Virus record (IMG/VR): IMGVR_UViG_2563367158_000001
Origin: a virus
Lineage: Duplodnaviria; Heunggongvirae; Uroviricota; Caudoviricetes
Direction: 5' to 3' (one strand)
DNA: 35,389 bases
Shown here: one piece after another, positions 1,369 to 35,389 of the stretch
Numbering within the stretch: the first letter of the stretch is position 1
Layout: each line of letters starts with the position of its first letter
Made by a program: the position numbers and the translations under genes
The notes under the pieces: generated by a model
Told to the model about the DNA's origin: nothing
What the model saw: only the letters and a program-made list of their open reading frames with translations
The model's database searches: none

Positions 1369-1444
1369 GCCGATATAGCTCAGTTGGTAGAGCAGCGCAT
1401 TCGTAATGCGAAGGTCGTAGGTTCGACTCCTATTATCGGCACCA
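1369..1444 (+). tRNA. thrW: tRNA-Thr (anticodon CGU); prophage integration target (attL side)
   Basis: 76-nt sequence GCCGATATAGCTCAGTTGG...GGTTCGACTCCTATTATCGGCACCA with cloverleaf elements and CGT in the anticodon loop; integrase gene ends 15 nt downstream. Confidence 0.9.
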
Positions 1445-1458
1445 TTTAAATCAATAAG

Positions 1459-2622
1459 TTACACATCATTAGTACCTTCCTTATTTCTTGACTGGGACAA
1501 ATTTGGGACCGATGGGTTCAGAATCGAGTCTATTTGCCGTGCGTGTTCGGTAAGGTGATTAGGTGCGAGGTGAGCATATCGACGAACCATTTCGATAGAC
1601 TCCCAGCCTCCCATTTCCTGTAACACTGATAACGGGACTCCGGCTTGAACCAGCCAACTTGCCCAGGTGTGTCTCAAGTCGTGAAATCTGAAATCATCAA
1701 TACCTGCTCGTCTCAGCGCCGCTTTCCAGGCTGTGTTTGCGTCATACCGCATCTTCCTGACTGTTGGCGCTTTCGTTCCGTCTGGTTTGGTACAGCTTTC
1801 CTTATACACAAATACCCAACGGTGATGATTCCCGATTTGTTTTTTCAATACGCGACATGCAGTATCATTCAGCGCAACGCCAATTGCGCGGTTTGATTTA
1901 CTCTCTTCCGGGTTTATCCATGCCACCCGGCGCTGCATGTCTATTTGTTGCCATTCAAGGTTGATGATGTTCGAGCGTCTTAAGCCTGTTGCAAGTGCAA
2001 ATTCAACAACAGACTTTAATGGCTCCGGACATTCATCAATCAGCCTTTGTGCTTCATGAGGCTCCAGCCAGCGGATCCGTTTATTCTTTGGTTGAGGCAC
2101 TTTAATAATTGGTGCCTTATCCAGCATTTTCCATTCACGCTCTGCGGCTCTTAGCAGGGCCTTTATAAATGAAAGATGCGTAGCCTTCGTTGCAACGGAC
2201 GCTGGTTTTGGCGTGTATTCTGGAACAGGTTTCCCTTTTTTTCTGCATGCTTCTGCCCTGAGTTTCCAGTTTTCCTCATGACGCCGGTTCGTCATTTTCT
2301 GCATTGCTGAATAAATTTTTGATTCAGTAATGTCTCTTAGTTGCATTCCTGCGAAATGTTGAAGCCAGAATCCGATCCGGCTTTTGTCATCGTCCAGTGA
2401 TTTTTTATGTGCTTTCTCTTCAAGCCACCTGACACACGCTTCCTCGAACGTTATATCAGGAATTTCACCAAGTTTGCTGACCCGCCATGCTTCAGCCTTT
2501 AGCTTGTCATGGAGTTCTGTCGCCTGCCTTTTGTCCTTTGTTCCAAGAGACTGTTTAAATCTTTTACCGTTCGGCAATGTGAAACTGGCGTACCATATTT
2601 CACCTCTGCGGAAGAGTGACAT
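1459..2622 (-). CDS. int: phage integrase, tyrosine recombinase (P22-type)
   Basis: 387-aa ORF; N-terminus [22 protein letters not shown] and C-terminal [10 protein letters not shown]...RY catalytic region typical of P22-family integrases; adjacent to tRNA. Confidence 0.92.
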
Positions 2623-2849
2623 TTTCTTTCCTCTGTTATGCCATCACCCGCGCTCACCTGGACAGTATGCAGCGGAGACTGAAGCGCCGCAATGCAGGCT
2701 TGTCGTGTTGTGAGGTAAGGAGATTTATTCTTAGTGGGATCTTTGCGTGTTGCCTGCAGACGCCCTGTGCGTATCCAGTTAATGGCAGTCGGTCTGGATA
2801 TCTTGAGAAAATGACAGGCCTCATCTAGCGTGAGGCTGTATGGTTCCAT
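2499..2849 (-). CDS. xis: excisionase
   Basis: 116-aa product starting at internal Met ([29 protein letters not shown]...) of the 2499..2933 ORF; helix-turn-helix-like N-terminus; immediately upstream of int; start overlaps upstream stop (TAATG). Confidence 0.75.
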
Positions 2850-3154
2850 TATTTCACCTCTTGCTGTGATATTGTTGAAAAATGAATGCCAGCTCGTTGT
2901 TGCCAGACGATCCAACCGAGAGTCATATCCCATGCCATGTATTCGTTATCGCCGTTTTTTGCTCTCCGACTATCTACTAAGCCACCGAAACGTTTTTCCA
3001 TAAATAATTCATAGGATTCGCGTTCATCTGGCTCTACTTCCAGAGATAGGAGTGCGATTTCATAAGCACGGCGCTCAATATCGTCTCGCACGTCAAGGCT
3101 GCTGATACGCTCTTTGATTTCTTTAATCAGTTCTTTGTCGGTAAAAGTGGTCAT
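2849..3154 (-). CDS. hypothetical early-left protein
   Basis: 101-aa ORF, translationally coupled to flanking genes in the int-proximal minus-strand operon. Confidence 0.5.
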   Translation of the reverse strand: MTTFTDKELIKEIKERISSLDVRDDIERRAYEIALLSLEVEPDERESYELFMEKRFGGLVDSRRAKNGDNEYMAWDMTLGWIVWQQRAGIHFSTISQQEVK

Positions 3155-3516
3155 TATGCTCCAGCCTCCGGTGCTTTTGGCATTACTGCCCAGTGAGTGA
3201 TATTGACGTTTTCAAGGTCCCCGACCTGAAATGTCCACTGCCAGTCTCCGGTTTCTTTTTGTCCCCAGGTGTACCAGAGAGAACGCCAGCCAATTAGCCA
3301 GCCTTCTCCGTTAGCATCGAATAACAAAACACTTTCATTTGCTGGTGGCAGTTCAGTTGACACTGGTATTACTTTGTTTTCCAGTGCCGCACATTTAGCT
3401 TCAAGCGCATCGAATTTACGCACCAGGTATTCAGCATCCGTTTCATTCACTTTCAGATCTCGCGGTACACATTTCCCGCGAAGAAACCCTTCCATTTCGA
3501 AAACATTCATGCGCAT
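3154..3516 (-). CDS. DUF551-like phage protein
   Basis: 120-aa ORF with Trp-rich core and C-terminal THWAVMPKAPE resembling the DUF551 signature; operon context. Confidence 0.55.
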   Translation of the reverse strand: MRMNVFEMEGFLRGKCVPRDLKVNETDAEYLVRKFDALEAKCAALENKVIPVSTELPPANESVLLFDANGEGWLIGWRSLWYTWGQKETGDWQWTFQVGDLENVNITHWAVMPKAPEAGA

Positions 3517-4043
3517 TTGCGTAACTCCGATAACTCGTTAAAACGTTCCATAAACATCCCGTAGGCATGGCCTGGCGACAGTGGAATAACTTTGAACATC
3601 TCTGTTGCTGGGATACCTTCCAGTAGAGGCCAGAAAGAGCCATCATCAAGCCCGAGATCGCGGCGTTCGGTTGCCAGCATGATGAGATCGGCATATTTCA
3701 CGGGCGTGCTCATAACCGGGGGTAACCCGTATTTCTCACGGATTACGGCGTCTATTTTTTCTTCCATCCGTTTATAGTCAGGAAGAAGGCGTTTCAGTTG
3801 CGCGGGGATGTCCTGACAATACGCTTCTGTTGCATCATGCATTAACGCTTCAAAGGCGAACTCTGGCGCCACAAGTTGACTGCACAGAACGGAATGCTGC
3901 GCCACGCTGTAAAAATCCGGCAAGTGTCCCGCGAAGCGGCAGATATTTGAAAGCGCACCGGCGATATCCTCGATATAAATATCGTCAATGGTGGAGTTGA
4001 TATAATTGAACTTCTTACCGGTAAGAGTCTGGATAAAACTCAT
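3507..4043 (-). CDS. HD-domain phosphohydrolase (5'-deoxynucleotidase-like)
   Basis: 178-aa ORF with H...HD metal-binding motif (AQHSV ... MHDATEAY) characteristic of the HD superfamily; AGGAG-like RBS upstream. Confidence 0.75.
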   Translation of the reverse strand: MSFIQTLTGKKFNYINSTIDDIYIEDIAGALSNICRFAGHLPDFYSVAQHSVLCSQLVAPEFAFEALMHDATEAYCQDIPAQLKRLLPDYKRMEEKIDAVIREKYGLPPVMSTPVKYADLIMLATERRDLGLDDGSFWPLLEGIPATEMFKVIPLSPGHAYGMFMERFNELSELRKCA

Positions 4044-4200
4044 CGTTAGTTCTCCTTAATTGGTGCGCTGCACCGCACGATTTTTGGTTGCACGAATCCC
4101 TCGCCATAAGGCGATTAAAAGTTTTGGTTTCGTTTCAGTAAATGCCCCATCCAGAGGCACTTAGTGCAACGGGCGGCTGCCATCGCCAGTTATTTTCCCC

Positions 4201-4285
4201 ACTCAATTGAAAGCGCGTTCCGGAGGTTTTGGACTTAACGAACTGGCACTTAATGACAAGGGACAGAACGCGCTTTCAGTTGAGT
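4201..4285. repeat. inverted repeat: 20-bp arms (19/20 complementary) separated by 45 bp
   Basis: ACTCAATTGAAAGCGCGTTC (4201-4220) and GAACGCGCTTTCAGTTGAGT (4266-4285) are reverse complements with one mismatch; lies in a 420-bp non-coding gap. Confidence 0.6.
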
Positions 4286-4433
4286 AAAAAGGTGGCTATT
4301 CATCAGAACATTGTCGCCTTCATTAGGTTTATCTGTTGAAGATCTGTAAGCCGCTTATAAATAAGTAGATATAAGATATTAGGAAAAGAAGAAGGACGTT
4401 ATAGTTTTATTTGTGATGTGCAAAGTATATTTG

Positions 4434-4456
4434 AATAAAACCCGCCCAGCGGGTTC
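4434..4456 (-). terminator. rho-independent terminator downstream of the membrane-protein gene
   Basis: Minus-strand hairpin CCCGC-TGG-GCGGG followed by a U-tract (plus strand AATAAAACCCGCCCAGCGGGTT), 10 nt after the stop of 4466..5062. Confidence 0.6.
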
Positions 4457-4465
4457 TAAAGTGTT

Positions 4466-5062
4466 TTAATGATTGTCGTAATAATTAATTGGCTCATCAT
4501 TTTTTTGGTCTGGCATAGTTATGGACCACTTTATATTCTTTAGGCTGTTATGTTTTTTATTGACCTTAAGCTCTCTCTTTGCTTCAGAGATAATATCGTC
4601 TAGTAATACTTTTAATTTATCAAGTCTTGACTTGTGGGCATCTATCAACTCTATACTATCAAACTCCCATTGTATAAATAGATTTTCTTCATTTTCAATG
4701 AATGAACGGATTTTATCCCCACACTCTTCTGTTAAGAATAATGAAGATAGCTCACCTATTCTACTGAGTTTTTCAAGCTCATTAGAGAAAGATTTGCTAA
4801 GGATTTCATTTTCTTCTTTTGATTTGTAACTAAAGTAGGTTGGGAATTGTGAAGCGTGATGTAACTCATGTTTATACCAATAGTCAGCTGTGTTTTTTAG
4901 AAGATAAACACAGTCAACTAATTGCGTATACAAATCTATTCTTTTGTCCCACCATTTTTCTTTATAATAACGGCCGAGTGCATATCGCGCAGTTAAGTAA
5001 GCTGCGATTGAGCCTGTAACAAGTCCGATAATTACCTTTGATATAAGGTCATGCCAATCCAT
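4466..5062 (-). CDS. hypothetical single-pass membrane protein in an AT-rich insertion; candidate exclusion or abortive-infection factor
   Basis: 198-aa ORF; N-terminal hydrophobic helix (IIGLVTGSIAAYLTARYAL) then an aromatic- and Lys/Glu-rich domain; about 30% GC by eye; own terminator; AT-rich leader upstream. Confidence 0.7.
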   Translation of the reverse strand: MDWHDLISKVIIGLVTGSIAAYLTARYALGRYYKEKWWDKRIDLYTQLVDCVYLLKNTADYWYKHELHHASQFPTYFSYKSKEENEILSKSFSNELEKLSRIGELSSLFLTEECGDKIRSFIENEENLFIQWEFDSIELIDAHKSRLDKLKVLLDDIISEAKRELKVNKKHNSLKNIKWSITMPDQKNDEPINYYDNH

Positions 5063-5479
5063 TTTTATTTTTCCTACATTATGTTATATAATTGTTCATA
5101 TCATACAATTGTTGAGTATAGATGTCTCGTTATTCATCAACATTTACTCCTGTTAAATTAGGGGGAGTATGTATTAAAAATATTCATCTGGGTCGTCTAA
5201 ATATTTTTGATAAACTAATAGCAATAACACTATCAATATTGCCTGCCCTCACGTCGTTCTTGCTCTCGCGCGATTTTTAACTAAACACTAGCAGGATTTA
5301 TCATGGTGCTACGCTACATTTACTTGTAGGGAGCTAAACAGATCATTGACGCTGAAAATATTCAAATTGTTAAAGAGCGAAGCGTCCTATGGGCGTTTTG
5401 TTGCTAACGAATCATCTTGGACTTCATATGCCCCAGGCGGCTACTTCGTGGACGTCCTGCCTGTTTGTTGTTTCTCTTG

Positions 5480-5513
5480 GGTACATTATGTATCTCAAAG
5501 GTACATTGTCAAG
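5480..5513. promoter_or_regulatory. OL-like operator repeats (two GGTACA sites 20 bp apart)
   Basis: GGTACATTATGTAT and GGTACATTGTCAAG resemble GGTACATATTGTAT and the TGTACC/GGTACA palindromes in the cI-cro intergenic region. Confidence 0.4.
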
Positions 5514-5514
5514 T

Positions 5515-5540
5515 ATAAAAAAACCTGCCGAAGCAGGTTC
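5515..5540 (-). terminator. rho-independent terminator after cI
   Basis: Minus-strand hairpin AACCTGC-TTCG-GCAGGTT followed by a run of T (plus strand AAAAAAACCTGCCGAAGCAGGTT), immediately after the cI stop. Confidence 0.65.
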
Positions 5541-5551
5541 ATAAACATTGA

Positions 5552-6226
5552 TTAGGCTTTGATTTTGTATCTTCTTGGTTTTCCTGAGAAAATCACTGTA
5601 CCAATTATAGAGCAATTACCGTTGATCTTAATGTAAGGCTCAGGCCAGTTTGGGTTTAACGCTTTGAGATAACGCTGTGTCCCATCTTCTATCAACCTTT
5701 TGAAGGTGGTTTCACCTGTATCGTGCATCAATGCAATAACGTCGTCACCGTGGCAGGCAGGTACTTCAGGATCGACAAAAATCATGTCTCCCGGGCGGTA
5801 CTCATCAATCATTGAATCACCTATCACCCGCAAGATATAAGTCATTTCCCCACAGGGGACAGGGCAGGGATACGTTTCTGCTGTGCTCAAATCAACCTCA
5901 GAATATCCAACTTCTTTCCATGCTCCGGCCTGTACCCATGATATGACAGGGACTAATGTGATTTGTTTATTAGTGATTGAAACATCAGGTTTTTTTGTGA
6001 TGTTCGTTGTCTGGTGTTCTTGATCGAGCCATCCGACAGGCAGGTCGAAACATTTTTCGATGTGTCGTGCCATGCTGTCACCGATATTTTTAGTAGCACC
6101 ATCTCCCATAAACCTGCTGGTCTGGGTTGGCTCGCGATCAATCATAGTGGCAAAGGAAGAATTCCCGCCAACACCATCTCTCAGTTTTCTGGCGTTAGAC
6201 CGCCGGATGTCATGGATTGTTTTCAT
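5552..6226 (-). CDS. cI: CI-type prophage repressor (HTH plus S24 LexA-like peptidase domain)
   Basis: 224-aa ORF; C-terminal GDSM...DGD...K region typical of self-cleaving S24 repressors; divergent to cro. Confidence 0.9.
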   Translation of the reverse strand: MKTIHDIRRSNARKLRDGVGGNSSFATMIDREPTQTSRFMGDGATKNIGDSMARHIEKCFDLPVGWLDQEHQTTNITKKPDVSITNKQITLVPVISWVQAGAWKEVGYSEVDLSTAETYPCPVPCGEMTYILRVIGDSMIDEYRPGDMIFVDPEVPACHGDDVIALMHDTGETTFKRLIEDGTQRYLKALNPNWPEPYIKINGNCSIIGTVIFSGKPRRYKIKA

Positions 6227-6241
6227 AACGAAATTAAAACC

Positions 6242-6316
6242 CTTGTACCGTTAAGGTACAAGTATCTTGAAGGTTCATTTCAATCATGTAATATGTACAT
6301 CGGAGGTACATATTGT
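6242..6316. promoter_or_regulatory. OR operator / PR-PRM region
   Basis: 8-bp inverted arms CTTGTACC/GGTACAAG with a 5-bp spacer (6242-6262), a second TGTACA-N5-GGTACA pair 50 bp downstream, and a sigma70-like PR (TTGAAG-N16-TAATAT, 6267-6294) before the cro RBS GGAGG. Confidence 0.6.
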
Positions 6317-6517
6317 ATGAAAGCGTATTGGGACTCTTTAACCAAAGAACAGCAGGGCGAGTTGGCCGGAAAAGTTGGCTCAACACCTGGCTACTTACGG
6401 CTGGTTTTCAATGGCTATAAAAAAGCCAGTTTTGTGCTGGCTAAAAAACTTGAGCAATGCACGTCAGGTGCAATTACGAAATCTGACTTAAGACCGGATA
6501 TCTATCCGAAAGATTAG
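6317..6517 (+). CDS. cro: Cro-like repressor
   Basis: 66-aa product from the ATG 10 nt after GGAGG (internal start of ORF 6014..6517); small basic HTH-like protein divergent from cI. Confidence 0.7.
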   Translation: MKAYWDSLTKEQQGELAGKVGSTPGYLRLVFNGYKKASFVLAKKLEQCTSGAITKSDLRPDIYPKD

Positions 6518-6548
6518 CAGAACACTTTCAATTTTTAACCACAGAACG

Positions 6549-7118
6549 ATGAGGCTAATCGTGGGTAAGCATCACTGGAAAATAGAAAAACAGCCTGAGT
6601 GGTACGTGAAAGCTGTCAGAAAAACTATCGCGGCGTTGCCGGGTGGTTACGCTGAAGCGGCTGACTGGCTCGATGTAACAGAAAACGCTTTATTCAACCG
6701 CCTTCGTGCAGATGGCGATCAGATTTTCCCGCTGGGATGGGCAATGGTTTTACAGCGTGCTGGTGGCACTCACTTCATTGCTGATGCTGTGGCGCAGTCT
6801 GCAAATGGCGTCTTTGTGTCTCTTCCTGACGTCGAGGATGTGGACAACGCCGATATTAACCAGCGTCTGCTGGAAGTCATTGAACAGATCGGCAGTTATT
6901 CAAAACAGATTCGTTCAGCAATCGAAGACGGTGTAGTGGAACCGCATGAGAAGACAGCAATTAACGACGAGCTGTATCTCTCAATTTCGAAGCTGCAGGA
7001 GCATGCAGCACTTGTCTACAAAATTTTTTGCATTTCAGAAAGTAATGACGCCCGCGAGTGTGCAGCTCCGGGCGTCGTGGCGTCGATTGCTTCTGGTTGT
7101 GGAGAAACTAACGCATGA
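6549..7118 (+). CDS. putative CII-like regulatory protein (family not verified)
   Basis: 189-aa ORF at the position following cro; no motif I can assign confidently. Confidence 0.5.
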
Positions 7119-7453
7119 ACAGTTTAACAACACACTACCGTCGCTCGCAACTGATTGCGCTTCCTGTACCGGGTGGAAAAGCGAAGGTGGAATATTGCTA
7201 TGCAGTGAATGTACCAGGTGACAGGGAAATTGTAACCCACAGCTTTGCAGAGTGGGCTGTGGGTGATTTCAACCGGCAGAAGGAGACAGTCCTTTGCGAC
7301 AAGTTAACCGCTGGTTCAAAGATCACTACGGAGTACCCGTCAGAGTCATTCGTTGGGAGCCGGAAACACAACGGGTTATCTACCTCCGCGAAGACTATGA
7401 GCATGAGTGCTTCAGCCCGCTCGAACAGTTTCGTCGTAAATTCAGGGAAATAG
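7115..7453 (+). CDS. hypothetical protein
   Basis: 112-aa ORF filling the gap between the CII-like gene and the replication gene on the operon strand, overlapping the upstream stop. Confidence 0.4.
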
Positions 7454-7462
7454 AGGTCGGTC

Positions 7463-8404
7463 ATGAGCACTAAATTAACCGGCTATGTATGGGATGGTTG
7501 CGCTGCGTCAGGCATGAAATTATCCAGCGTGGCAATTATGGCCCGCCTGGCTGATTTCAGTAATGACGAAGGTGTGTGCTGGCCATCAATTGAAACCATT
7601 GCCCGTCAGATTGGCGCGGGGATGAGTACCGTCAGAACGGCTATCGCACGGCTGGAAGCAGAAGGCTGGTTAACGCGTAAGGCGCGTCGCCAGGGTAACC
7701 GCAATGCGTCGAATGTTTATCAGCTTAACGTTGCGAAGCTTCAGGCAGCGGCATTTTCTCAACTGTCAGATTCTGACCCGTCAAAATCTGACGCATCAAA
7801 ATCTGACCCGTCAAAATTTGATGCGTCGAAATCTGGCAAAAAAGCGGGTTTTCACCCGTCAGAATCTGGCGGGGATCCGTCAGTAAAATCAAAACATGAT
7901 CCGTCAGATAAAAAAACTTCTCGTCCGGACGCTTCGCAACCGGACACGCAGACGGCTGAACAGGAGTTTTTAACTCGCCATCCTGATGCGGTTGTATTCA
8001 GCCCTAAAAAGCGCCAGTGGGGAACGCAGGATGATTTGACCTGCGCACAGTGGCTCTGGAAAAAAATCATCGCCCTGTACGAGCAGGCCGCCGAATGTGA
8101 CGGCGAGGTGGTTCGTCCCAAAGAACCGAACTGGACAGCCTGGGCAAACGAAATTCGCCTGATGTGTGTGCAGGATGGTCGTACTCACAAACAAATCTGC
8201 GAGATGTACAGCCGCGTCAGCCGCGATCCGTTCTGGTGCCGTAACGTGCTCAGCCCGTCGAAGCTGCGGGAAAAATGGGATGAGCTTTCCCTGCGCTTAT
8301 CGCCGTCCGTCAGCACGTACACCGAAAAACGCGAAGACCCGTACTTCAAAGCCAGTTACGACAACGTGGACTACAGCCAGATCCCGGCAGGATTCAGGGG
8401 GTGA
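7463..8404 (+). CDS. replication initiation protein (N-terminal winged HTH, O-like), ori within gene
   Basis: 313-aa ORF; N-terminal HTH (SIETIARQIGAGMSTVRTAIARLEAEGWL); central low-complexity linker encoded by tandem DNA iterons. Confidence 0.75.
   Translation: MSTKLTGYVWDGCAASGMKLSSVAIMARLADFSNDEGVCWPSIETIARQIGAGMSTVRTAIARLEAEGWLTRKARRQGNRNASNVYQLNVAKLQAAAFSQLSDSDPSKSDASKSDPSKFDASKSGKKAGFHPSESGGDPSVKSKHDPSDKKTSRPDASQPDTQTAEQEFLTRHPDAVVFSPKKRQWGTQDDLTCAQWLWKKIIALYEQAAECDGEVVRPKEPNWTAWANEIRLMCVQDGRTHKQICEMYSRVSRDPFWCRNVLSPSKLREKWDELSLRLSPSVSTYTEKREDPYFKASYDNVDYSQIPAGFRG
7763..7837 (+). repeat. origin-like iterons: five tandem 15-bp repeats, consensus about CCGTCAAAATCTGAC
   Basis: Directly tandem copies at 7763, 7778, 7793, 7808 and 7823; three further degenerate CCGTCAG copies to 7914, then an A-rich tract; analogous to lambda ori inside O. 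Confidence 0.65.
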
Positions 8405-8895
8405 TCATGAGTCTTTTGAATGAAGTTCAGAAATACATTGAAGCCCATCCGGGGTGTACTTCCGGAGACATTGCGGATGCTTTTGCAGGTTACTCACGGC
8501 AGCGCGTTCTGCAGTCAGCAAGCAAGTTACGTCAGAGTGGTCGTGTGGCTCACCGTTGTGAAGGGGATACACGCAGACATTTCCCGCGCCTGACTGAGAG
8601 AGCGCAGGAGGCGGAACCGCAACCAGTTCGTGAAACCAGACCTGTGCGCAATTTCTATGTCGGCACTAACGACCCGCGGGAGATTTTGTGCCTGACCCGC
8701 CAGGCGGAAGAACTGGAGTCCAGGGGCTTATACCGTCGTGCTGCAACGGTGTGGATGGCGGCATTCCGTGAAAGCCACTCCCAGCAAGAGCGAAACAATT
8801 TTCTGGCGCGTCGTGAGCGGTGCTTACGGAAAAGCAGCAAGCGCGCTGCATCGGGTGAAGAGTGGTATCTGTCAGGGAATTACGTGGGGGCTTAA
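8401..8895 (+). CDS. PerC-family transcriptional activator homologue
   Basis: 164-aa ORF with the motif AEELESRGLYRRAATVWMAA resembling the PerC/Pch signature. Confidence 0.55.
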   Translation: MIMSLLNEVQKYIEAHPGCTSGDIADAFAGYSRQRVLQSASKLRQSGRVAHRCEGDTRRHFPRLTERAQEAEPQPVRETRPVRNFYVGTNDPREILCLTRQAEELESRGLYRRAATVWMAAFRESHSQQERNNFLARRERCLRKSSKRAASGEEWYLSGNYVGA

Positions 8896-9548
8896 TGAGT
8901 AATAAATATTGCCAGGCGCTGGTGGAACTGCGGAACAAACCAGCTCATGAACTGAAGGAAGTGGGCGATCAGTGGCGCACGCCGGACAACATTTTCTGGG
9001 GAATTAACACCCTGTTTGGCCCGTTTGTTCTGGATCTGTTCACTGACGGTGATAACGCCAAATGTGCCGCGTATTACACGGCGGAAGACAACGCGCTGGC
9101 GCATGACTGGTCAGAACGTCTTGCGGAGCTTAAAGGTGCTGCCTTTGGTAATCCCCCATACAGCCGCGCCAGTCAGCATGAGGGGCAATACATCACCGGC
9201 ATGCGTTACATCATGAAGCATGCCAGTGCCATGCGTGATAAAGGCGGGCGCTATGTTTTCCTGATCAAAGCTGCCACCAGCGAAGTGTGGTGGCCGGAAA
9301 ATGCAGATCATATTGCTTTTATTCGCGGGCGTATTGGTTTTGAACTGCCTGTCTGGTTTATCCCGAAAGACGAGAAGCAGGTACCGACAGGCGCTTTCTT
9401 CGCTGGTGCTATTGCTGTTTTCGACAAGACCTGGAAGGGACCGGCAATCAGCTACATCGGGCGCGATGAACTTGAGGCATGTGGTGAGGCCTTTCTGGCG
9501 CAGGTTCGCCAGCAGGCGGAAAAACTGGTCAGGGAGATGGCGGCATGA
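8895..9548 (+). CDS. phage-type DNA N6-adenine methyltransferase
   Basis: 217-aa product from the internal Met (MSNKYCQALVEL...) with the NPPY catalytic motif (FGNPPYSRA); start overlaps the PerC-like stop (TAATG). Confidence 0.8.
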   Translation: MSNKYCQALVELRNKPAHELKEVGDQWRTPDNIFWGINTLFGPFVLDLFTDGDNAKCAAYYTAEDNALAHDWSERLAELKGAAFGNPPYSRASQHEGQYITGMRYIMKHASAMRDKGGRYVFLIKAATSEVWWPENADHIAFIRGRIGFELPVWFIPKDEKQVPTGAFFAGAIAVFDKTWKGPAISYIGRDELEACGEAFLAQVRQQAEKLVREMAA

Positions 9549-27644: not shown

Positions 27645-27672
27645 CCAGGATTCCCCTCACATGTATTGCTGG

Positions 27673-27700
27673 TTGTAAGTCATAAATAGAGTGATAGAAT
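27673..27700 (+). promoter_or_regulatory. candidate sigma70 promoter for the tail-module insertion
   Basis: TTGTAA-N16-TAGAAT located 36 nt upstream of the ATG at 27736. Confidence 0.4.
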
Positions 27701-27735
27701 TAATGCACATTTAGAAAAATGTTAATAGGCGAAAA

Positions 27736-28266
27736 ATGAAAGGCTATATCACAGCAAGTGTAATTCTTGGAGCAGCGGCTATTTTTTCATCTCTCATAAT
27801 CTCTGGCAACATCTCCTTTAAAGATGAACATATTATTCAGTTATCTGGAGGAGCCATAAAACTTGGTGATGTTTATAAAGAAAATAAATTAATAAGTGCA
27901 AAGATTATTTTTCCAGATAATCAGGGTGAACAGATTCTTGTTGTCGACGGCAATCCTGAAAACTTTAAGGAGGATTTTCAGGAGAAATTAAATAAAGTAA
28001 TAAAAACTTTAAATGCGTCAAAGAAAAAAGATGAAGAGAAAGTTAGCCTGGATAATTTAAGTGTTATTGAAGAGTCTAAACTAGAGCTCGTTTCTGCGGT
28101 GCGTTACTCTGCTCAGTATGTTCCTATGTTTACTCTGACGCTGGACAAAAAAGAAATTACCATGCCTAAAAATACGGTAATATTTCCATTTGCCAGCGAT
28201 GAAACAGCTAAGTATTTAAATGAACAACAGCAAAAGTATAAAGATTCGTTGTTTCTGACTCGCTAA
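27736..28266 (+). CDS. hypothetical signal-anchored / secreted protein (AT-rich insertion inside tail module)
   Basis: 176-aa ORF; N-terminal hydrophobic segment (ITASVILGAAAIFSSLIISG) then a Lys/Glu-rich domain; about 28% GC by eye; candidate promoter and strong terminator. Confidence 0.65.
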   Translation: MKGYITASVILGAAAIFSSLIISGNISFKDEHIIQLSGGAIKLGDVYKENKLISAKIIFPDNQGEQILVVDGNPENFKEDFQEKLNKVIKTLNASKKKDEEKVSLDNLSVIEESKLELVSAVRYSAQYVPMFTLTLDKKEITMPKNTVIFPFASDETAKYLNEQQQKYKDSLFLTR

Positions 28267-28286
28267 TTAATAAAATTCATTACAAG

Positions 28287-28316
28287 GCCACCTTCTAATA
28301 GGTGGCTTTTTTATTT
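28287..28316 (+). terminator. rho-independent terminator
   Basis: GCCACCT-TCTAAT-AGGTGGC hairpin followed by TTTTTTATTTT. Confidence 0.7.
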
Positions 28317-28327
28317 TCGGAGTGTAT

Positions 28328-29656
28328 ATGACGTGGAAAGACAGGCTTCAGGATGCGTCATTTCGAGGTGTGCCGTTTAAGGTTGAAGAAGAAAGTGCGG
28401 GAACTGGTCGCCGTGTGGAAACACATGAATACCCGAACCGCGACAAGCCCTATACCGAAGATCTGGGAAAAGTCACTTTCCGCCCGTCCATCACAGCTTA
28501 TGTGGTGGGAGATGACTGCTTTGACCAGCGCGATCGCCTGATTGAAGCGCTGAATAAACCCGGTCCCGGCACGCTTGTCCACCCGACATATGGTGAGCTG
28601 AAAGTCTGTGTTGACGGGGAAGTTCGGGTCAGCACATCGAAAAGTGAAGGGCGTATTGTCCGCTTTGACCTGAAGTTTGTCGAAGCAGGAGAACTCTCTT
28701 ACCCCACATCAGGTGCGGCGACGGCGCAGACGCTGATGTCATCCTGTTCTGCACTGGATGACTGCATCAGTGACAGCTTCAGCGGTTTCAGTATCGATGG
28801 TGTGGCGGATTTCGTGCAGAACGACGTTATCGGTAATGCCAGCATAATGCTGGGGTATGTTTCTGATGCGATGAAAGTGGTGGATTCTGCCGTATCGGAT
28901 GCCGCCAGGCTGTTGCAGGGGGATATCTCGGTACTTCTGCCGCCGCCATCGTCAGGCAAAAATTTCGTTGAGCAGGTGCAGAAAATGTGGCGTACCGGGA
29001 AACGCCTTTATGGTAACGCCAGCGACCTGGTCACCATGATCAAAACGCTTTCCGGTGTCAGCCTCGGCAGCGATCTGCAACCGCGCGGCGTCTGGAAAAC
29101 GGACAGTAAAACCACCGCCACGGCTACGCAGCAGCGTAATGTGGTTGCCAGCACCCTTCGTACGACCGCAATCAGCGAAGCGGCGTATGCCATCACCCGA
29201 TTGCCTGCGCCAACAACTTCCGCGGTGATGCAGAATTCCGCAGTGGGGCAGGCAACAACACCTGCGCAGAGCACTGGCTGGCCTTCCGTCACGCATCCGG
29301 CACTGAACAATGCACCGGCGGTGAAAAACACGGTTGACCTGCCGACGTGGGAAGAACTGACTGACATTCGCGACACACTGAATACGACAATTGATAAGGA
29401 GTTGTCCCGTACAACCAGTGATGCGCTGTTTCTGGCGCTGCGCCGGGTGAAAGCAGATCTGAATGCGGATATCAACACGCGCCTTGAACAGTCTGCACGG
29501 ATCATTCAGCGCACACCGGATGAGGTTTTACCCGCGCTGGTGCTGGCGGCGACCTGGTTTGATAACGCGGCGCGTGACGCGGACATTATCCGGCGTAATG
29601 CCATTACGCATCCCGGCTTTGTGCCGGTGATCCCTCTGAAGGTGCCAGTGCAATGA
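28328..29656 (+). CDS. DNA circularisation protein (Mu N-like tail protein)
   Basis: About 442-aa product starting MTWKDRLQDASFRGVPFKVEEESAGTGRRVETHEYPNRD, typical of the Mu N family; CGGAG RBS 6 nt upstream. Confidence 0.8.
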   Translation: MTWKDRLQDASFRGVPFKVEEESAGTGRRVETHEYPNRDKPYTEDLGKVTFRPSITAYVVGDDCFDQRDRLIEALNKPGPGTLVHPTYGELKVCVDGEVRVSTSKSEGRIVRFDLKFVEAGELSYPTSGAATAQTLMSSCSALDDCISDSFSGFSIDGVADFVQNDVIGNASIMLGYVSDAMKVVDSAVSDAARLLQGDISVLLPPPSSGKNFVEQVQKMWRTGKRLYGNASDLVTMIKTLSGVSLGSDLQPRGVWKTDSKTTATATQQRNVVASTLRTTAISEAAYAITRLPAPTTSAVMQNSAVGQATTPAQSTGWPSVTHPALNNAPAVKNTVDLPTWEELTDIRDTLNTTIDKELSRTTSDALFLALRRVKADLNADINTRLEQSARIIQRTPDEVLPALVLAATWFDNAARDADIIRRNAITHPGFVPVIPLKVPVQ

Positions 29657-30732
29657 ACGACAATGTCACGCTACGGGTAAATGGCCGGGAGTGGAATGGC
29701 TGGACATCGGTACGCATCGGTGCCGGTATTGAACGGCTGGCGCGGGATTTCAGTGTGGAGATCACCCGACAGTGGCCGGGAGATGAGGGGATCACCACGC
29801 TTCAGCCGCGCATTAAAAACGGTTCAAAAGTGGAGGTGCTGATTGGTGATGAGCTGGTGATCACCGGCTGGGTGGAGGCGACGCCCGTTCGTTACGATGC
29901 CCGTTCGGTCAGCACCGGTATTGCCGGACGCAGTCTGACCGCTGACCTGATTGACTGTGCAGCCGAACCGACACAGTTTAACGGACGATCGCTGGTACAG
30001 ATTGCGCAGGCGCTTGCTGCGCCTTTCGGCATTGAGGTGGTGAACAACAGTGCGCCGTCGGGTGTTATTCCTGATGTCCAGCCTGATCACGGCGAAACGG
30101 TGATTGAGGTGATCAACAAAATACTCGGTCAGCAGCAGGCACTGGCTTACGACGACCCGCACGGCAGGCTGGTGATTGGCGGTATTGGCTCAACGCGGGC
30201 ACATACCGCGCTGGTACTTGGGGAAAATATCCTTTCCTGTGATACGGAGAAGAGTATCCGGGAGCGGTTTTCTGTTTACCAGGTGGCGGGGCAGCGTGCC
30301 GGAAACGACGATGATTTCGGTGAGGCCACCACCACCGCGCTGCGGGCCCGCACAGAGGACGCATTTATTGCCCGTTACCGTCCGATGTATATCAGGCAGA
30401 CAGGGCAGGCTACGGGGGCAGGCTGTATTGCCCGTGCGGACTTTGAAGCCCGACAACGGGCGGCGCGGACGGATGAAACCACCTATGTGGTTCAGGGCTG
30501 GCGACAGGGTAACGGTACGCTGTGGCAGCCCAACCAGCGGGTGATTGTCTTCGATCCGGTCTGTGGTTTCGACAATACCGAACTGCTTGTCTCGGAAGTC
30601 ACGTTTACTCAGGACCAGAACGGCACCCTGACGGAAATCCGTGTCGGCCCACCTGATGCTTATCTGCCTGAACCCGAAGCCCCCGGCGCGCGGAAAAAGA
30701 AAAAAGCCAGAGTACAGGAGGACCCGTTCTGA
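29653..30732 (+). CDS. baseplate hub protein (Mu P / P2 D-like)
   Basis: 359-aa ORF in conserved order after the DNA circularisation gene. Confidence 0.8.
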   Translation: MNDNVTLRVNGREWNGWTSVRIGAGIERLARDFSVEITRQWPGDEGITTLQPRIKNGSKVEVLIGDELVITGWVEATPVRYDARSVSTGIAGRSLTADLIDCAAEPTQFNGRSLVQIAQALAAPFGIEVVNNSAPSGVIPDVQPDHGETVIEVINKILGQQQALAYDDPHGRLVIGGIGSTRAHTALVLGENILSCDTEKSIRERFSVYQVAGQRAGNDDDFGEATTTALRARTEDAFIARYRPMYIRQTGQATGAGCIARADFEARQRAARTDETTYVVQGWRQGNGTLWQPNQRVIVFDPVCGFDNTELLVSEVTFTQDQNGTLTEIRVGPPDAYLPEPEAPGARKKKKARVQEDPF

Positions 30733-31280
30733 TGAGGACGATTGAAGCCATGCAGCGACAACTTCTCGGCCTGATTGGGCGGGCAGTGGTGAAAAGCATC
30801 AGTGCCGCCACGAAATGTCAGACCGTGGATGTGTCCCTGATTGCCGGTGAACCCAAAGCCGGGGTTGAACATCTTGAACCCTACGGTTTTACCGCAAGGG
30901 CAAACAGCGGTGCGGAAGCGGTGGTGTTGTTTCCGGATGGCGACCGTTCTCATGCGGTGGTTGTTACGGTGTCGGACCGGCGCTACCGCCTGAAAGGGCT
31001 GCAGACGGGTGAGGTGGCGGTCTATGACGATCAGGGGAAGTCCGTGACGCTGACCCGGGAGGGGATCGTGGTGGACGGTGCAGGTAAAACGATCACGTTT
31101 CGCAATTCACCTAAAGCACGTTTTGAAATGGACCTAGAAGTGACAGGACAGGTGAAAGACCTGTGCGACTCCAGCGGCACCACCATGTCAGCGATGCGGC
31201 TTGCCTATAACGGGCATCGTCACAGAGAGAACGGTCAGGGCAGTAACACCGACAAAACTGATAAAGCGATGGAGGCATGA
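30732..31280 (+). CDS. baseplate assembly protein V (spike)
   Basis: 182-aa ORF with an OB-fold-like N-terminal region; conserved position. Confidence 0.8.
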   Translation: MRTIEAMQRQLLGLIGRAVVKSISAATKCQTVDVSLIAGEPKAGVEHLEPYGFTARANSGAEAVVLFPDGDRSHAVVVTVSDRRYRLKGLQTGEVAVYDDQGKSVTLTREGIVVDGAGKTITFRNSPKARFEMDLEVTGQVKDLCDSSGTTMSAMRLAYNGHRHRENGQGSNTDKTDKAMEA

Positions 31281-31705
31281 TGGAACTGTGGCTGACGGTG
31301 AACGGTAAACGCACCTGCGCCAGCGCACCGCTGGATCCGCTGACCCGCGCCGTGGTGATTTCCCTGTTTACCTGGCGGCGGGCGGAGCCTGATGACAACG
31401 CCGACGTCCCGATGGGATGGTGGGGGGATACCTGGCCTGCGGTACAGAATGACCGTTACGGCTCCCGACTGTGGCTGCTTCAGCGCAGCAAACTGACCAA
31501 TCAGCTGGTGCAGACGGTAAGGGGGTATATCCGCGAATGCCTGCAATGGATGATTGATGACGGCGTGGTGTCCCGTATTGATCTGGATATCCGCCGCACC
31601 GGGATTAATGAACTGGGTAATAGTATCACTCTCTGGCGTCGTGACGGACCGGTAATGATTTCTTTTGATGATCTGTGGAGTGCGATAACGCATGGCGGAC
31701 AGTGA
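31277..31705 (+). CDS. Mu gp46-like baseplate protein
   Basis: 142-aa ORF in conserved position. Confidence 0.75.
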   Translation: MMELWLTVNGKRTCASAPLDPLTRAVVISLFTWRRAEPDDNADVPMGWWGDTWPAVQNDRYGSRLWLLQRSKLTNQLVQTVRGYIRECLQWMIDDGVVSRIDLDIRRTGINELGNSITLWRRDGPVMISFDDLWSAITHGGQ

Positions 31706-32750
31706 ATTTCAGCGCCCGACGCTGGCAGAAAATATCAGTATGCTCCGTAACGATTTATTCGCCAGGCTGGACGTCAGCGACACGCTCCGGCGCATGGATG
31801 AAGACGTGCGGGCAAAGGTGTATGCGGCGGCGCTGCATACGGTTTACGGGTACATCGATTATCTGGCAATGAACATTCTGCCTGACCTGTGCGATGAGTC
31901 CTGGCTGGCGCGACATGCTGCGATGAAACGGTGTCCGCGCAAGGGGGCCACGGCTGCCAGCGGGTATATGCGCTGGGAAGGTGTCAGCGATGGCCTGAAG
32001 GTGACCGCCGGGAGTGTTATTCAGCGCGATGACCTGGTTCAGTACACGGCAACTGCCGATGCAACCAGCTCCGGTGGTGTCCTGCGCGTGCCGATCGCCT
32101 GCTCAAGTGCAGGCGCGGTCGGTAACGCTGACGACGGTACGTCATTAATCCTGGTCACGCCGGTTAATGGTCTGCCGTCTTCCGGCGTGGCAGATACCCT
32201 GACAGGTGGATTTGATACTGAAGAGCTGGAAACGTGGCGCGCCCGCGTCATTGAGCGGTATTACTGGACGCCTCAGGGCGGGGCTGACGGGGACTATGTC
32301 GTCTGGGCTAAAGAAGTGCCCGGCATTACCCGCGCATGGACATACCGTCACTGGATGGGAACGGGAACTGTCGGTGTGATGATTGCCAGCAGTGACCTGA
32401 TTAATCCCATTCCGGAAGAATCAACGGAAACGGCAGCAAGACAACATATCTGGCCACTGGCCCCGGTGGCAGGCTCTGATTTGTATGTATTCAGGCCGGT
32501 GGCACATACGGTGGATTTTCATATCCGCGTGACGCCGGACACACCAGAAATACGGGCTGCCATTACCGCGGAGTTGCGTTCGTTCCTGCTGCGTGATGGT
32601 TATCCGCAGGGAGAACTCAAGGTATCGCGTATCAGTGAGGCGATTTCCGGTGCGAACGGGGAATACAGCCATCAGTTGCTTGCACCGGTGGACAATATCT
32701 CCATTGCGAAAAACGAACTGGCGGTACTGGGGACGATTTCATGGACGTGA
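31692..32750 (+). CDS. baseplate J-like protein
   Basis: 352-aa ORF in conserved position. Confidence 0.85.
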
Positions 32751-33325
32751 CAAACGATGATTACATCCGCCTGTTATCGGCACTGTTGCCGCCCGGTCCG
32801 GCGTGGTCAGCCAGCGATCCGGCGATTGCCGGTGCGGCACCGTCATTAACCCGTGTTCATCAGCGTGCGGATGCCCTGATGCGGGAGCTGGATCCGCGCA
32901 CCACCACTGAACTGATAAACCGCTGGGAGCGTCTGTGCGGTCTGCCGGATGAATGTATTCCGGCGGGAACGCAGACCCTTCGCCAGCGTCAGCAACGGCT
33001 GGATGCGAAGGTTAACCTGGCGGGCGGCATCAACGAGGATTTTTATCTTGCACAGCTTGCTGCCCTGTGCAGACCAGATGCCACCATCACGCGATACGAC
33101 AAAAGCACTTTCACCTGCTCATCGGCCTGTACTGACGCGGTGAATGCGCCGGAATGGCGGTATTACTGGCAGGTCAACATGCCAGCCACCACCAACTCCA
33201 CCTGGATGACATGTGGCGATCCCTGTGATTCCGCACTGCGTATCTGGGGTGACACCGTTGTCGAGTGTGTGCTTAACAAACTCTGCCCGTCGCATACCTA
33301 CGTAATTTTTAAATATCCGGAGTAA
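32741..33325 (+). CDS. DUF2313-family tail protein (Mu gp48 / YmfQ-like)
   Basis: 194-aa ORF in the position preceding the tail fibre, as in the e14 prophage. Confidence 0.75.
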
Positions 33326-33328
33326 TCC

Positions 33329-34111
33329 ATGCATCGTATAGACACGAAAACCGCGCAGAAGGATAAGTTCGGCGCGGGTAAGAACGGTTTTACCCGTGGT
33401 AACCCCCAGACCGGCACGCCTGCCACCGATCTGGATGATGACTACTTTGACATGTTGCAGGAGGAACTTTGCAGCGTGGTGGAGGCATCCGGTGCCAGCC
33501 TGGAGAAGGGGCGGCACGACCAGTTACTTACCGCACTTCGCGCGCTGCTGTTAAGCCGCAAGAATCCGTTTGGTGATATCAAATCGGATGGCACGGTGAA
33601 AACGGCTCTCGAAAACCTTGGTTTGGGAGAAGGTTCTGCGTTGCCTGTTGGCGCACCAGTTCCTTGGCCTTCAGCTACGCCGCCGACAGGCTGGCTGAAA
33701 TGCAACGGAGCAGCTTTTTCTGCTGAAGAATACCCGGAACTGGCAAAGGCTTATCCGACAAATAAATTGCCTGATTTACGCGGTGAATTTATTCGTGGCT
33801 GGGATGACGGACGTGGAGTGGATAACGGAAGGGGATTATTAACGCTTCAGGACGGTGCGATTGTCAGTCATAACCACTATTGGGGAATCTGGACTTCACG
33901 AACTAACGACCAGACTCTGGAAAGTTTTACAGGCACCACGATTTTAAAACAAATCACGCCCCTGTCTCCGGCCATTGACTTCGATAATTACCCAATTCCC
34001 AACCCGGCTATTACAGAGGGTGGTGTTGTTGCGGCAACGACTAAACCTGCAGGTGCGAATGAAACGCGCCCACGAAATGTCGCTTTTAACTATATTGTGA
34101 GGGCTGCATAA
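33329..34111 (+). CDS. side tail fibre protein (phage tail collar domain)
   Basis: 260-aa ORF with the tail-collar motif ([25 protein letters not shown]). Confidence 0.8.
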
Positions 34112-34716
34112 TGAATAACGCAGAATTAAACAGTGAATTAATTGCCACTATGGCAGGAGAAATTACTGTTTATAACTTTGATGTCGTGAGTCGGGAGTAT
34201 ATTTCAGCTTCAACTGAATATCTTGCTGTTGGTGTCGGCATTCCTGCATATTCCTGTTTAGATGCTCCAGGCGCATACAAAGCTGGTTATGCAATCTGCC
34301 GTTCTGCAGATTTTAACTCATGGGAATATGTGCCAGACCATCGCGGTGAAATCGTCTTTAGCACCGAAACGGGGGAATCAAAAGAAATTACTGTGCCGGG
34401 GGATTACCCTGAAAATACGACCACTTTTGCACCATTAACGCCATACGATAAATGGGATGGTGAGAAATGGGTAACAGATATCGAGGCACAGCATAGCGCC
34501 GCAGTAGATGCAGCAGAAGTACAGCGCCAGTTGCTGATTGATATTGCAATGGCTTCCATCAGTCTGATTCAACTGAAATTACAGGCCGGACGGAATCTGA
34601 CGCAGGCAGAAACCAACCGACTTAACACGGTGCTGGATTACATTGACGCGGTGACGGAAACAAATACCAGCACCGCGCCTGATATTATTTGGCCTGCTTT
34701 TCCTGAGACTGATTAA
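34111..34716 (+). CDS. tail fibre assembly protein
   Basis: 201-aa ORF starting [24 protein letters not shown], typical Tfa-like chaperone directly after the fibre gene. Confidence 0.8.
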   Translation: MNNAELNSELIATMAGEITVYNFDVVSREYISASTEYLAVGVGIPAYSCLDAPGAYKAGYAICRSADFNSWEYVPDHRGEIVFSTETGESKEITVPGDYPENTTTFAPLTPYDKWDGEKWVTDIEAQHSAAVDAAEVQRQLLIDIAMASISLIQLKLQAGRNLTQAETNRLNTVLDYIDAVTETNTSTAPDIIWPAFPETD

Positions 34717-34945
34717 CCTCAATCAATATTGGTTCCCCTTTCTCATTAATTGTTAGCTCCATGCCCTGAGGAATTTCTGTCATAGTAAAAAACCAGTTGT
34801 CCTCCGGTAATTCAATAGCCCCGGTCACATCATGAAGACCGGGGATTACTTCAGTCAAATTAACTGGATTAAACAGGCGCACAATAAACCCTCCAGGAAA
34901 AAGCATTTGATGATGGTCTGCCGTCGAACATCTGGCAGCGGACAT
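34685..34945 (-). CDS. putative alternative tail-fibre chaperone on opposite strand
   Basis: 86-aa minus-strand ORF converging on the plus-strand tfa gene; start uncertain; function inferred from position only. Confidence 0.35.
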   Translation of the reverse strand: MSAARCSTADHHQMLFPGGFIVRLFNPVNLTEVIPGLHDVTGAIELPEDNWFFTMTEIPQGMELTINEKGEPILIEVNQSQEKQAK

Positions 34946-35327
34946 AAAAACCGGTATTTGTTACCTGATCATCCACGATCATTGAAACGTGAACATTATT
35001 AGGTGTGCTCTCGTAATCTGTTCTTATTCTTTCCGCGATACTGATAAAACGTGAAAGTTTAGGCAGTGCAATTGGGTAAACGACTTTAGCCAGTCCATTA
35101 TCATTAGACCCACCCGTTCCAAAGACTTCTATTGCACCATCTGACCAGCGAATCCATGCACCATTGGCATTAGCTCCTCGCTGAATGATATATCTGGCTT
35201 CTCCCAAACCAACGTATATGAAAATGCAGAAATAACGAGCAAATGGCATCATTCCTGCTTTTAGTAAAGAGATTGAGCATGCTGGTAGGTTATATACGGG
35301 TATCAACAAATGAGCAGAACACAGCAT
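34869..35327 (-). CDS. putative promoterless alternative tail-fibre C-terminal cassette
   Basis: Minus-strand ORF whose translation (QRGANANGAWIRWSDGAIEV) parallels the tail-collar region of the plus-strand fibre ([18 protein letters not shown]); the annotated Met at 35327 is probably spurious. Confidence 0.35.
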   Translation of the reverse strand: MLCSAHLLIPVYNLPACSISLLKAGMMPFARYFCIFIYVGLGEARYIIQRGANANGAWIRWSDGAIEVFGTGGSNDNGLAKVVYPIALPKLSRFISIAERIRTDYESTPNNVHVSMIVDDQVTNTGFYVRCQMFDGRPSSNAFSWRVYCAPV

Positions 35328-35389
35328 TACTGATAAATGCGCTCGAGTGCGCAGGAGGTGAGCTGATTTTTGAAGACAAAATATTCTAA
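35279..35389 (+). pseudogene. Gin/Pin/Hin-type serine DNA invertase, N-terminal 36 codons ending in an in-frame TAA at the window edge
   Basis: MLVGYIRVSTNEQNTALLINALECAGGELIFEDKIF matches the invertase N-terminus including the catalytic Ser region (RVSTN.QNT); stop at 35387-35389 where intact homologues continue. Confidence 0.45.

Follow-up and report, generated by a model that had tools for sequence, protein, structure and literature searches.

What does a prophage built like the serotype-converting phage SfV carry at its far end, next to the right attachment site (attR), and does the backbone foretell it? The question is raised by a 35,389-nt stretch of viral DNA (IMG/VR record IMGVR_UViG_2563367158_000001; "the window" in what follows is this whole stretch) that begins in bacterial DNA, crosses the tRNA gene thrW and then runs as phage genome to its last base. 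As to structure there is little room for doubt that positions 1399-35389 are the left 34 kb of a temperate myovirus prophage of about 40.1 kb, a member of the SfV/e14 family integrated in thrW. The rest of it, recovered from public assemblies, is occupied by genes of quite another kind than those for O-antigen modification, and the best explanation of the whole is in all probability an SfV/e14-family prophage in which defence-type cargo has replaced gtr in the attR-proximal slot. That at least one of the cargo genes serves in defence is judged, from sequence and gene context, somewhat more probable than an even chance.

The window stops, as the preliminary description had it, at a fragment of an invertase gene. 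The fragment is 80% identical to residues 1-35 of PinE and to these only; homology to pinE stops at 35383, and the TAA that closes the stub 6 nt further on forms the last bases of the window, so that the window boundary nearly coincides with the junction to the cargo. (A technical note: everything past 35389 was read from other public assemblies, identical to the right-hand part of the window.) An exact look-up of the tfa protein led to seven assemblies. One of these, GCA_000364305.1 (KB822522.1; "L005" in the coordinates below), is 100% identical to window positions 24111-35389, that is, over the last 11.3 kb; the next 6.1 kb, cargo included, are 100% identical in five assemblies and 99.98% identical in two. 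The check that had been proposed for this element was to look for attR at a plausible distance, and it is there: an exact 46-bp copy of the 3' end of thrW occupies L005 17386-17431 (41496-41541 in window coordinates, 6.1 kb past the window). The prophage is thereby about 40.1 kb long; isolated relatives measure 37-43 kb. Before attR runs an arm of some 320 bp that is also present in E7476, 50EVAW and phi458, and 171-173 nt of it match the attP of SfV.

Between the invertase stub and this arm lie, in order, the gene of an 870-aa ATPase, a decayed SRAP gene, and the genes of an AbiJ-like HEPN protein and a DUF4365 protein, at a GC content of 0.31-0.47, well under that of the phage backbone. It had been expected that cargo would be found near attR and that it would be of the O-antigen-modifying type. 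Genes are indeed present; the type is not the expected one. A tblastn search with GtrA/B/V of SfV and GtrA/B/C of P22 against the 44.7-kb composite (E<=1e-3) gave no match, and there is no acyltransferase domain among the called genes (oac itself was not searched for). The sole similarity to SfV in the cargo interval is a 173-bp attP arm.

Prophage ends with conversion or defence genes are well documented (PMC3636060, PMC3710099), and in SfV, SfI and SfII gtrABC is always immediately upstream of attP (PMC3636060); glucosylating phages of both Shigella and Salmonella have it in the stretch from the fibre genes to attP. Across the wider group of relatives the interval from fibre module to attR holds a changing set of genes: gtr in SfV and P22 (thrW); pinE and McrA in e14 of K-12 (icd); pinE, a GIY-YIG protein and an AraC regulator in E7476 (thrW); pinE, a GIY-YIG protein and an FlxA-like protein in JE86-ST02 (thrW); and pinE, DUF3037, a HipA-family kinase, DinI, UmuDC and SRAP in GE3 (a tRNA-Pro gene). 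The slot next to attP being variable, an SfV-like backbone at thrW is not evidence of serotype conversion. In the icd-located prophage of E. coli strain 1190 (L015 17530-19644) another truncated recombinase abuts a defence-type DUF262 gene, an independent second truncation of a fibre invertase, which suggests that recombination has exchanged cargo at the 3' end of pin more than once. The literature, searched for a defence hot spot described at this place, gave nothing specific. In 50EVAW (thrW), strain 165 (prfC) and strain E14 (ssrA) the block of stub, ATPase gene and SRAP remnant again comes after this tail module, there without the Abi_C and DUF4365 genes; the ATPase block, it is concluded from these comparisons, is phage-borne and moves with the tail and fibre module.

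What kind of protein is the ATPase? Its best PHROG match is "SbcC-like subunit" and PADLOC gives a partial match to LmuB (9e-27). The family to which it belongs occurs in many phyla, conserved from end to end at 56-97% identity and annotated only as "AAA family ATPase". Walker A, Walker B, the signature motif and the H-loop are invariant in it, as is a CPAC motif in the predicted mid-coil region; so too is a C-terminal block, SREWRYLNKGxHxE, with R-x6-H within it. AlphaFold2 models the last 164 residues as a helical bundle, at medium confidence (pLDDT 74.8, pTM 0.72), and the C-terminal domain is predicted to have a HEPN fold. The gene is found in 20 of 5,426 complete RefSeq E. coli genomes; the full cargo is found in none of them. 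Neighbours of the ATPase-family gene were counted over 80 species-level loci: hsdS is immediately upstream in 8, on the same strand and at a median gap of 17 nt, and the only others that recur are hsdM (7), RhuM-like genes (4), hsdR (3) and SbcD-like genes (3). Members of the family also stand at prophage ends and in defence islands beside AIPR and type IIG enzymes. Linkage to restriction-modification (R-M), RhuM-like neighbours and location on prophages agree with what Anantharaman et al. (PMC3710099) reported of ABC-HEPN proteins, those like RloC among them. A Lamassu reading of the ATPase was considered and rejected: the LmuB match is partial, and neither an LmuA-like nor any other conserved partner is present in the 80 loci.

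The other two intact cargo genes can be placed more briefly. The real start of the Abi_C protein is likely to lie about 32-39 codons downstream of that of the longest open reading frame, since most homologues have 244-252 aa; the motif LRNHxSxAHP is kept in at least 90% of its family. In the family of the DUF4365 protein a D...E...QxK block of the PD-(D/E)xK kind is conserved. DUF4365 is the nuclease effector domain (DREN) of the SPARDA short-Argonaute systems. The spacer between the ATPase and Abi_C genes contains no open reading frame of at least 50 aa, the SRAP remnant is the only part of it that is explained, and in an Rfam scan all matches fell far under the gathering scores. In one assembly (L003) an insertion sequence (IS) has entered the spacer with a 10-bp duplication.

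Do these genes form a system? Of the 80 loci of the ATPase family, 1 has a member of the DUF4365 family nearby and none an Abi_C member. The one case, Pseudocolwellia sp. AS88, has the ATPase-family gene directly upstream of the DUF4365-family gene on the same strand, and it is the only such pairing among the 80 besides the prophage studied here; a two-gene ATPase-DUF4365 system was rejected as a general rule on that count. An Abi_C-DUF4365 operon pair was likewise rejected, the sampled neighbourhoods of neither family containing the other. Among those neighbourhoods are the ends of prophages in Proteus and Yersinia and, in P. syringae, a Hachiman locus. From the gene neighbourhoods it is concluded that the three intact cargo genes are independent single-gene modules.

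How the phage functions work is well supported by homology with SfV, P22, e14 and lambda. Int and Xis of the P22 type recombine the 46-bp core in the 3' end of thrW; a CI of the SfV type, cleavable in the SOS response, keeps the prophage silent and probably inducible; antitermination by Q turns on the late genes, whose products package DNA from cos with HNH protein and terminase and build a head of the HK97 type and a contractile tail of the Mu type; and the e14-type invertible segment can switch the fibre tip. The most likely role of the cargo is that its three single-gene modules would shield the lysogen against infection by other phages. In this role the ATPase-HEPN protein would work in the manner of RloC and PrrC, its ATPase sensing a phage-induced signal and freeing the RNase so that translation stops; the Abi_C protein would serve as an RNase of abortive infection, and the DUF4365 protein would be a nuclease. 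Two linked generalizations can be offered tentatively, at somewhat less than even confidence in the pair: 1) that the fibre-to-attP interval of SfV/e14/P22-int phages may be a general exchange slot for lysogen-protecting genes, in which gtr modules that mask the receptor and intracellular defence genes swap, sometimes destroying the invertase; 2) that the 870-aa protein may represent a widespread, restriction-linked family of Rad50-like ABC ATPase-HEPN proteins, single-gene abortive-infection RNases analogous to RloC.

Several points weigh against this interpretation. The extension was taken from other assemblies. Behind the HEPN assignment stand a motif and a helical-bundle model of medium confidence; in Pfam the C-terminal domain has a match to DUF7014 only, below threshold, and the ATPase reaches 21.9 bits with AAA_13 (the RloC/PrrC family) against a cut-off of 36. 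In PADLOC the cargo matches LmuB partially and AbiJ weakly, the DUF4365 protein has no match there, and no cargo protein is named by NCBIfam. Searches of PDB sequences with the cargo proteins and with a profile of the C-terminal domain returned generic SMC/Rad50 heads or noise only.

What else might the element be? A serotype-converting phage of the SfV type with gtrABC or oac near attR is what one would expect from a backbone, a thrW site and an att core that are all those of SfV, SfI and SfII, phages that bear gtrABC next to attP; yet the Gtr search is empty, the interval is fully taken by other genes, and homology to SfV ends at 33632 and returns only in the attP arm, so that this reading is scarcely credible and, for the assemblies identical to the window, already refuted. 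Might the cargo instead be a separate genomic island beside the prophage, outside the phage genome? Its low GC content and the tandem islands that thrW collects beyond attR would fit; the cargo, however, is on the phage side of attR, flanked by the fibre module and by the conserved 320-bp arm, it includes no integrase or transposase, and the block of stub, ATPase gene and SRAP remnant accompanies the same tail module at prfC and ssrA as well. An island of that sort is very improbable.

The two further alternatives concern what the cargo does. It could have a role other than defence, such as repair or recombination of phage DNA by an SbcC/Rad50-like protein, or addiction of a toxin-antitoxin-like kind: the best PHROG match is SbcC-like, SbcD-like genes are among the recurrent neighbours, and other variants of the slot hold UmuDC, DinI and SRAP, which are DNA-damage functions. 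This is improbable in view of an ATPase that has no conserved nuclease partner in its 80 loci and has an invariant C-terminal domain of HEPN-like fold (in the model), of a family linked to R-M and present in defence islands beside AIPR and type IIG enzymes, and of a slot position equal to that of McrA in e14. It could also be decaying junk at the recombination-prone end of a cryptic, non-inducible remnant. The invertase cut to 36 codons, the SRAP gene decayed to 195 nt and the IS in the spacer of one strain speak for decay, and so do pseudogenes in relatives (strain 1190 has a capsid gene with an internal stop codon, 50EVAW a frameshift in GP46). Against it stand backbone reading frames that all match their SfV or E7476 counterparts in length, intact cos, attL and attR, a length of 40.1 kb that falls among those of isolated relatives, and three cargo reading frames that are intact, 99.98-100% conserved, and members of families that are full-length across phyla; and the invertase is dispensable for phage growth, as Mu gin and e14 pin exemplify. 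A remnant is rather unlikely. The SfV/e14-family prophage with defence-type cargo in place of gtr is the interpretation that is retained here.

The backbone itself is that of an ordinary member of an already described kind of phage, mosaic SfV/e14/lambda genomes being on record (PMC3636060). Its features are collected in the table.

Features of the window and of the adjoining cargo interval (positions are those of the window unless marked L005).
Feature	Position	Strand	Basis or remark
proA	1-1254		matches annotated proA of E. coli; directly before the tRNA gene
thrW, tRNA-Thr(CGT)	1369-1444	+	ARAGORN and Rfam
P22-type integration module	int 1459-2622, xis 2499-2933	-	Pfam Phage_integrase and HTH_17
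Early-left genes homologous to SfV orf28-30	2849-4043	-	blastn against SfV covering 1399-4148; E7476 annotation
HD/YfbR-like hydrolase	3507-4043	-	weak Pfam YfbR-like match
AT-rich replacement beside cI, sieB/rex-like position	4149-5405	-	GC 0.35-0.37; no SfV counterpart
Orphan 198-aa protein, one N-terminal transmembrane helix	4466-5062	-	phrog_17948, function unknown
cI	5552-6226	-	Peptidase_S24; 99% identical to SfV CI
cro/ymfT	about 6317-6517	+
CII-like ymfL	6549-7118	+	phrog_101, CII-like
ymfM	7115-7453	+	97% identical to e14 YmfM
Early-right operon	7463-12837	+	annotation of the co-linear E7476 prophage; Pfam HTH_36, Antiterm Q
Q antiterminator	12085-12837	+	Pfam Antiterm Q
Lysis region	12967-14723	+	AT-rich replacement 12967-13810 at its start
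Acidic 111-aa orphan	13023-13358	+	phrog_13663, function unknown
LydA-type holin	13411-13815	+	Pfam Phage_holin_3_3; phrog_785 holin
GH24 endolysin	13802-14278	+	SfV lysin at 88% DNA identity
Rz-like protein	14262-14723	+	E7476 annotation
HNH endonuclease	15382-15732	+	phrog_144
cos, TGCCCGCCCC	15798-15807		motif of SfI/SfV, quoted in PMC3636060
TerS	15849-16352	+
TerL	16349-18082	+	Pfam TerL_ATPase, TerL_nuclease
HK97-type head: portal, S78 prohead protease, major capsid (PF05065)	18276-21365	+	Pfam Phage_portal, Peptidase_S78, Phage_capsid
Head-tail connectors and contractile tail (terminator, sheath, tube, assembly chaperone, tape measure)	21415-27644	+	Pfam of identical genes in public assemblies; 95% DNA identity to SfV
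Sheath	23549-25045	+
Tape measure	25812-27644	+
AT-rich insertion in tail operon, between tape measure and DNA-circulation genes	27639-28303	+	GC 0.38; at SfV 11600/11646
Orphan 176-aa membrane-anchored protein, one N-terminal transmembrane helix	27736-28266	+	phrog_5485, function unknown
Mu-type DNA-circulation protein and baseplate (gp44, gp45, gp46, gp47, gp48 homologues)	28322-33325	+	Pfam DNA_circ_N, Phage_Mu_Gp45, GP46, Baseplate_J, Phage_Mu_Gp48
Tail fibre with e14/Mu-G-type invertible segment	33329-35215	both	constant part until about 33632
Sv+U	fibre 33329-34111, tfa 34111-34716	+	layout of open reading frames
U'/S'v	second, shorter tfa 34685-34945, fibre C-terminus about 34869-35215	-	layout of open reading frames
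Pin-type serine invertase remnant, MLVGYIRVSTNEQNT..., 36 codons	35279-35389	+	after right repeat arm
870-aa Rad50/SMC-like ABC ATPase	between stub and SRAP remnant	-	Pfam SMC_N, AAA_23
SRAP (YedK-like) gene remnant, 195 nt	within spacer of about 985 nt, L005 14015-14999 (window-equivalent about 38125-39109)
Abi_C (HEPN) protein, AbiJ-like	L005 15000-15851		longest open reading frame 283 aa; Abi_C 35.8 bits, cut-off 24
DUF4365 (PD-(D/E)xK) protein, 317 aa	last cargo gene before attR		DUF4365 over Pfam threshold

The preliminary description had proposed a prophage at thrW beside proA with a P22-type integration module, lambdoid regulation, an HK97-like head, a Mu-like contractile tail and an overall architecture of the SfV type, and all of this holds. 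The core of attL is the 3' 46 nt of thrW (1399-1444), with phage sequence from 1399 onward; it agrees with the 46-bp sequence printed in the SfI paper (PMC3636060), and this core, ATTCGTAATGCGAAGGTCGTAGGTTCGACTCCTATTATCGGCACCA, is the same, letter for letter, at attL and attR and equals the attP cores of SfV and P22. Compared with the P22 proteins, Int is 90% identical and Xis 87%, and the int/xis DNA is 94% identical to that of SfV (blastn). In a megablast against deposited phages SfV gave 66% coverage at 95.7% identity, SfI, SfII and SfIV about 97% identity across head and tail, and Escherichia phage vB_EcoM-689R6 a coverage of 73-87%; over most modules (immunity, late regulator, packaging and the whole tail) DNA identity to SfV, SfI, SfII and SfIV is 95-98%, and the order of genes is co-linear. 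The fibre end, instead, is e14-like. The best matches among the 5,426 complete RefSeq E. coli genomes are 99.3% identical on the left side of the window and about 97-98% on the right. In an Rfam scan of the window thrW was the sole match.

Segments homologous to SfV by blastn are 1399-4148, 5406-7151, 8329-12966 (at 95.7% DNA identity), 13811-14380, 15376-18021, 21617-27638 and 28304-33632; those without a match are 4149-5405, 7152-8328 (the replication region), 12967-13810, 14381-15375, 18022-21616, 27639-28303, and everything from 33633 until the attP arm. Four AT-rich insertions had been proposed, and taken as a high accessory load. Four low-GC stretches are real, at 4001-5500 (GC 0.35-0.37), 12501-13500 (0.39), 27501-28500 (0.38) and from 34001 to the window end (0.45), against 0.50-0.59 in the backbone; but when measured against SfV just one, 27639-28303, is cleanly inserted, and the remaining AT-rich stretches are replacements of segments. 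One of these, 12967-13810, includes the holin gene, a core gene and not an accessory one. The second half of the claim did not survive: orphan genes in relatives equal or exceed those here in number, and since E7476, for example, bears extra ones between Q and holin, the accessory load is not unusual. The three orphan reading frames at 4466-5062, 13023-13358 and 27736-28266 have no match in Pfam, PADLOC or NCBIfam and fall only into PHROG families of unknown function; the one in the lysis region is placed just downstream of Q. That position is where the Stx genes sit in Stx phages. The tail-operon insertion is also found in E7476, JE86-ST02 and GE3.

The regulatory circuit is lambdoid: CI and Cro are divergent, the repressor is of the autocleavable S24 type, the activator YmfL is CII-like, and Q lies upstream of the lysis genes. 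The near-identity of CI to that of SfV implies SfV immunity, and a lysogen should be immune to SfV; the S24 autocleavage domain (LexA/CI-type) suggests that induction depends on the SOS response. The element also encodes an SOS cell-division inhibitor of the YmfM type. The early-right operon comprises a replication initiator, PerC-like, Dam methylase, LexA-like, RusA, KilA-N and DUF968 genes and the Q antiterminator. The head allele (18022-21616), which has no DNA match in SfV, matches SfII and SfI and is shared with e14. The DNA-circulation and baseplate region is 97.5% identical in DNA to SfV, where it is annotated "similar to Mu N, P, gp45-48".

In the fibre gene, homology to SfV ends at 33632, exactly at the left one of two 18-nt arms (33615-33632 and 35198-35215, 94% complementary) that form an inverted repeat and bracket the segment 33615-35215; the layout of fibre and tfa genes within it is identical in e14. 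No intact serine invertase was found adjoining the fibre segment, where 36 codons remain, and in 50EVAW, strain 165 and strain E14 the stub is annotated "DNA-invertase, missing C-terminus". The complete genome CP181453.1 has flanks 100% identical to those in the window and the segment 33615-35212 inverted; with identical flanks, the opposite orientation implies that the switch flipped recently. The invertases Gin, Cin, Pin and Hin are interchangeable, and by that token the inversion is presumably catalysed in trans by another invertase of the Din family.

Beyond attR the DNA is no longer that of the phage. In L005 17432-20606 there are an integrase fragment, a MarR gene and an autotransporter; other strains have integrases of the P4 type, an OLD-like ATPase, and a P4-like satellite bearing Icd-like and TOPRIM/DUF927 primase genes. 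The islands differ by strain, and some strains have none, with only a LysR gene fragment from attR to the pao genes; thrW is a multi-occupancy hot spot.

Current understanding is not overturned by this element. What it offers is 1) three compact candidate genes for phage defence in a natural prophage, one of them from a broad ABC-ATPase-HEPN family often attached to type I R-M operons, and 2) a clear case, found in nature, of a fibre switch that goes on inverting with its own invertase lost.

How closely do the cargo proteins resemble systems already known? The ATPase shares with RloC and PrrC an N-terminal Rad50/ABC head, with RloC a CxxC in the predicted coiled-coil insert like that of the zinc hook (PMC2610378, PMC3458546, PMC3710099), and with both a frequent placement after hsdS, with RhuM-like genes and on prophages; its conserved C-terminal domain, with R-x6-H, may be a further likeness if the predicted HEPN fold is right. 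It differs in its sub-threshold AAA_13 score and in a C-terminal domain that resembles the classical MNT-type HEPN and not the PrrC nuclease domain. The named ABC-HEPN groups APECO1_4465 and ERFG_01251 (Anantharaman et al. 2013) are similar by architecture, and the ATPase may be a member of one of them. The HEPN protein is like AbiJ in having the Abi_C domain over the Pfam threshold, and it is a solo gene here and also at a prophage end in Proteus; it differs in that its PADLOC match to AbiJ is weak (1e-6) and it has no assigned N-terminal domain. The DUF4365 protein has the domain and the conserved block of the SPARDA effector; unlike that effector it is a stand-alone protein of about 320 aa with a conserved C-terminal extension, and APAZ and Argonaute are absent from every sampled neighbourhood.

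The phages themselves leave less to argue about. With SfV, SfI, SfII and SfIV the element has in common thrW and the identical 46-bp core, the gene order, CI and int/xis at the identities given above, and, with a DNA identity of 95-98%, Q, Dam, RusA, cos, TerS/TerL and all of the Mu-type tail; it differs from SfV in having no gtrA, gtrB or gtr(type), in a fibre tip and tfa that form an invertible segment followed by an invertase stub, which SfV lacks, and in its portal-protease-capsid allele (that of SfI, SfII and e14), its holin and its orphan genes. P22 shares the integration proteins, the thrW att core and the habit of placing conversion cargo between a tail gene and attP, but it is a podovirus whose structural genes are unrelated, and it has gtrABC in the slot. 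With e14 the element shares the immunity region of the ymfK/T/L/M type, a YmfM 97% identical, the baseplate protein YmfQ, and the order of an invertible stf/tfa segment followed by pin and, in e14, by the defence gene mcrA before attR; e14, for its part, sits in icd with another integrase, is heavily deleted, and retains an intact pinE, with McrA where the ATPase, Abi_C and DUF4365 genes stand here.

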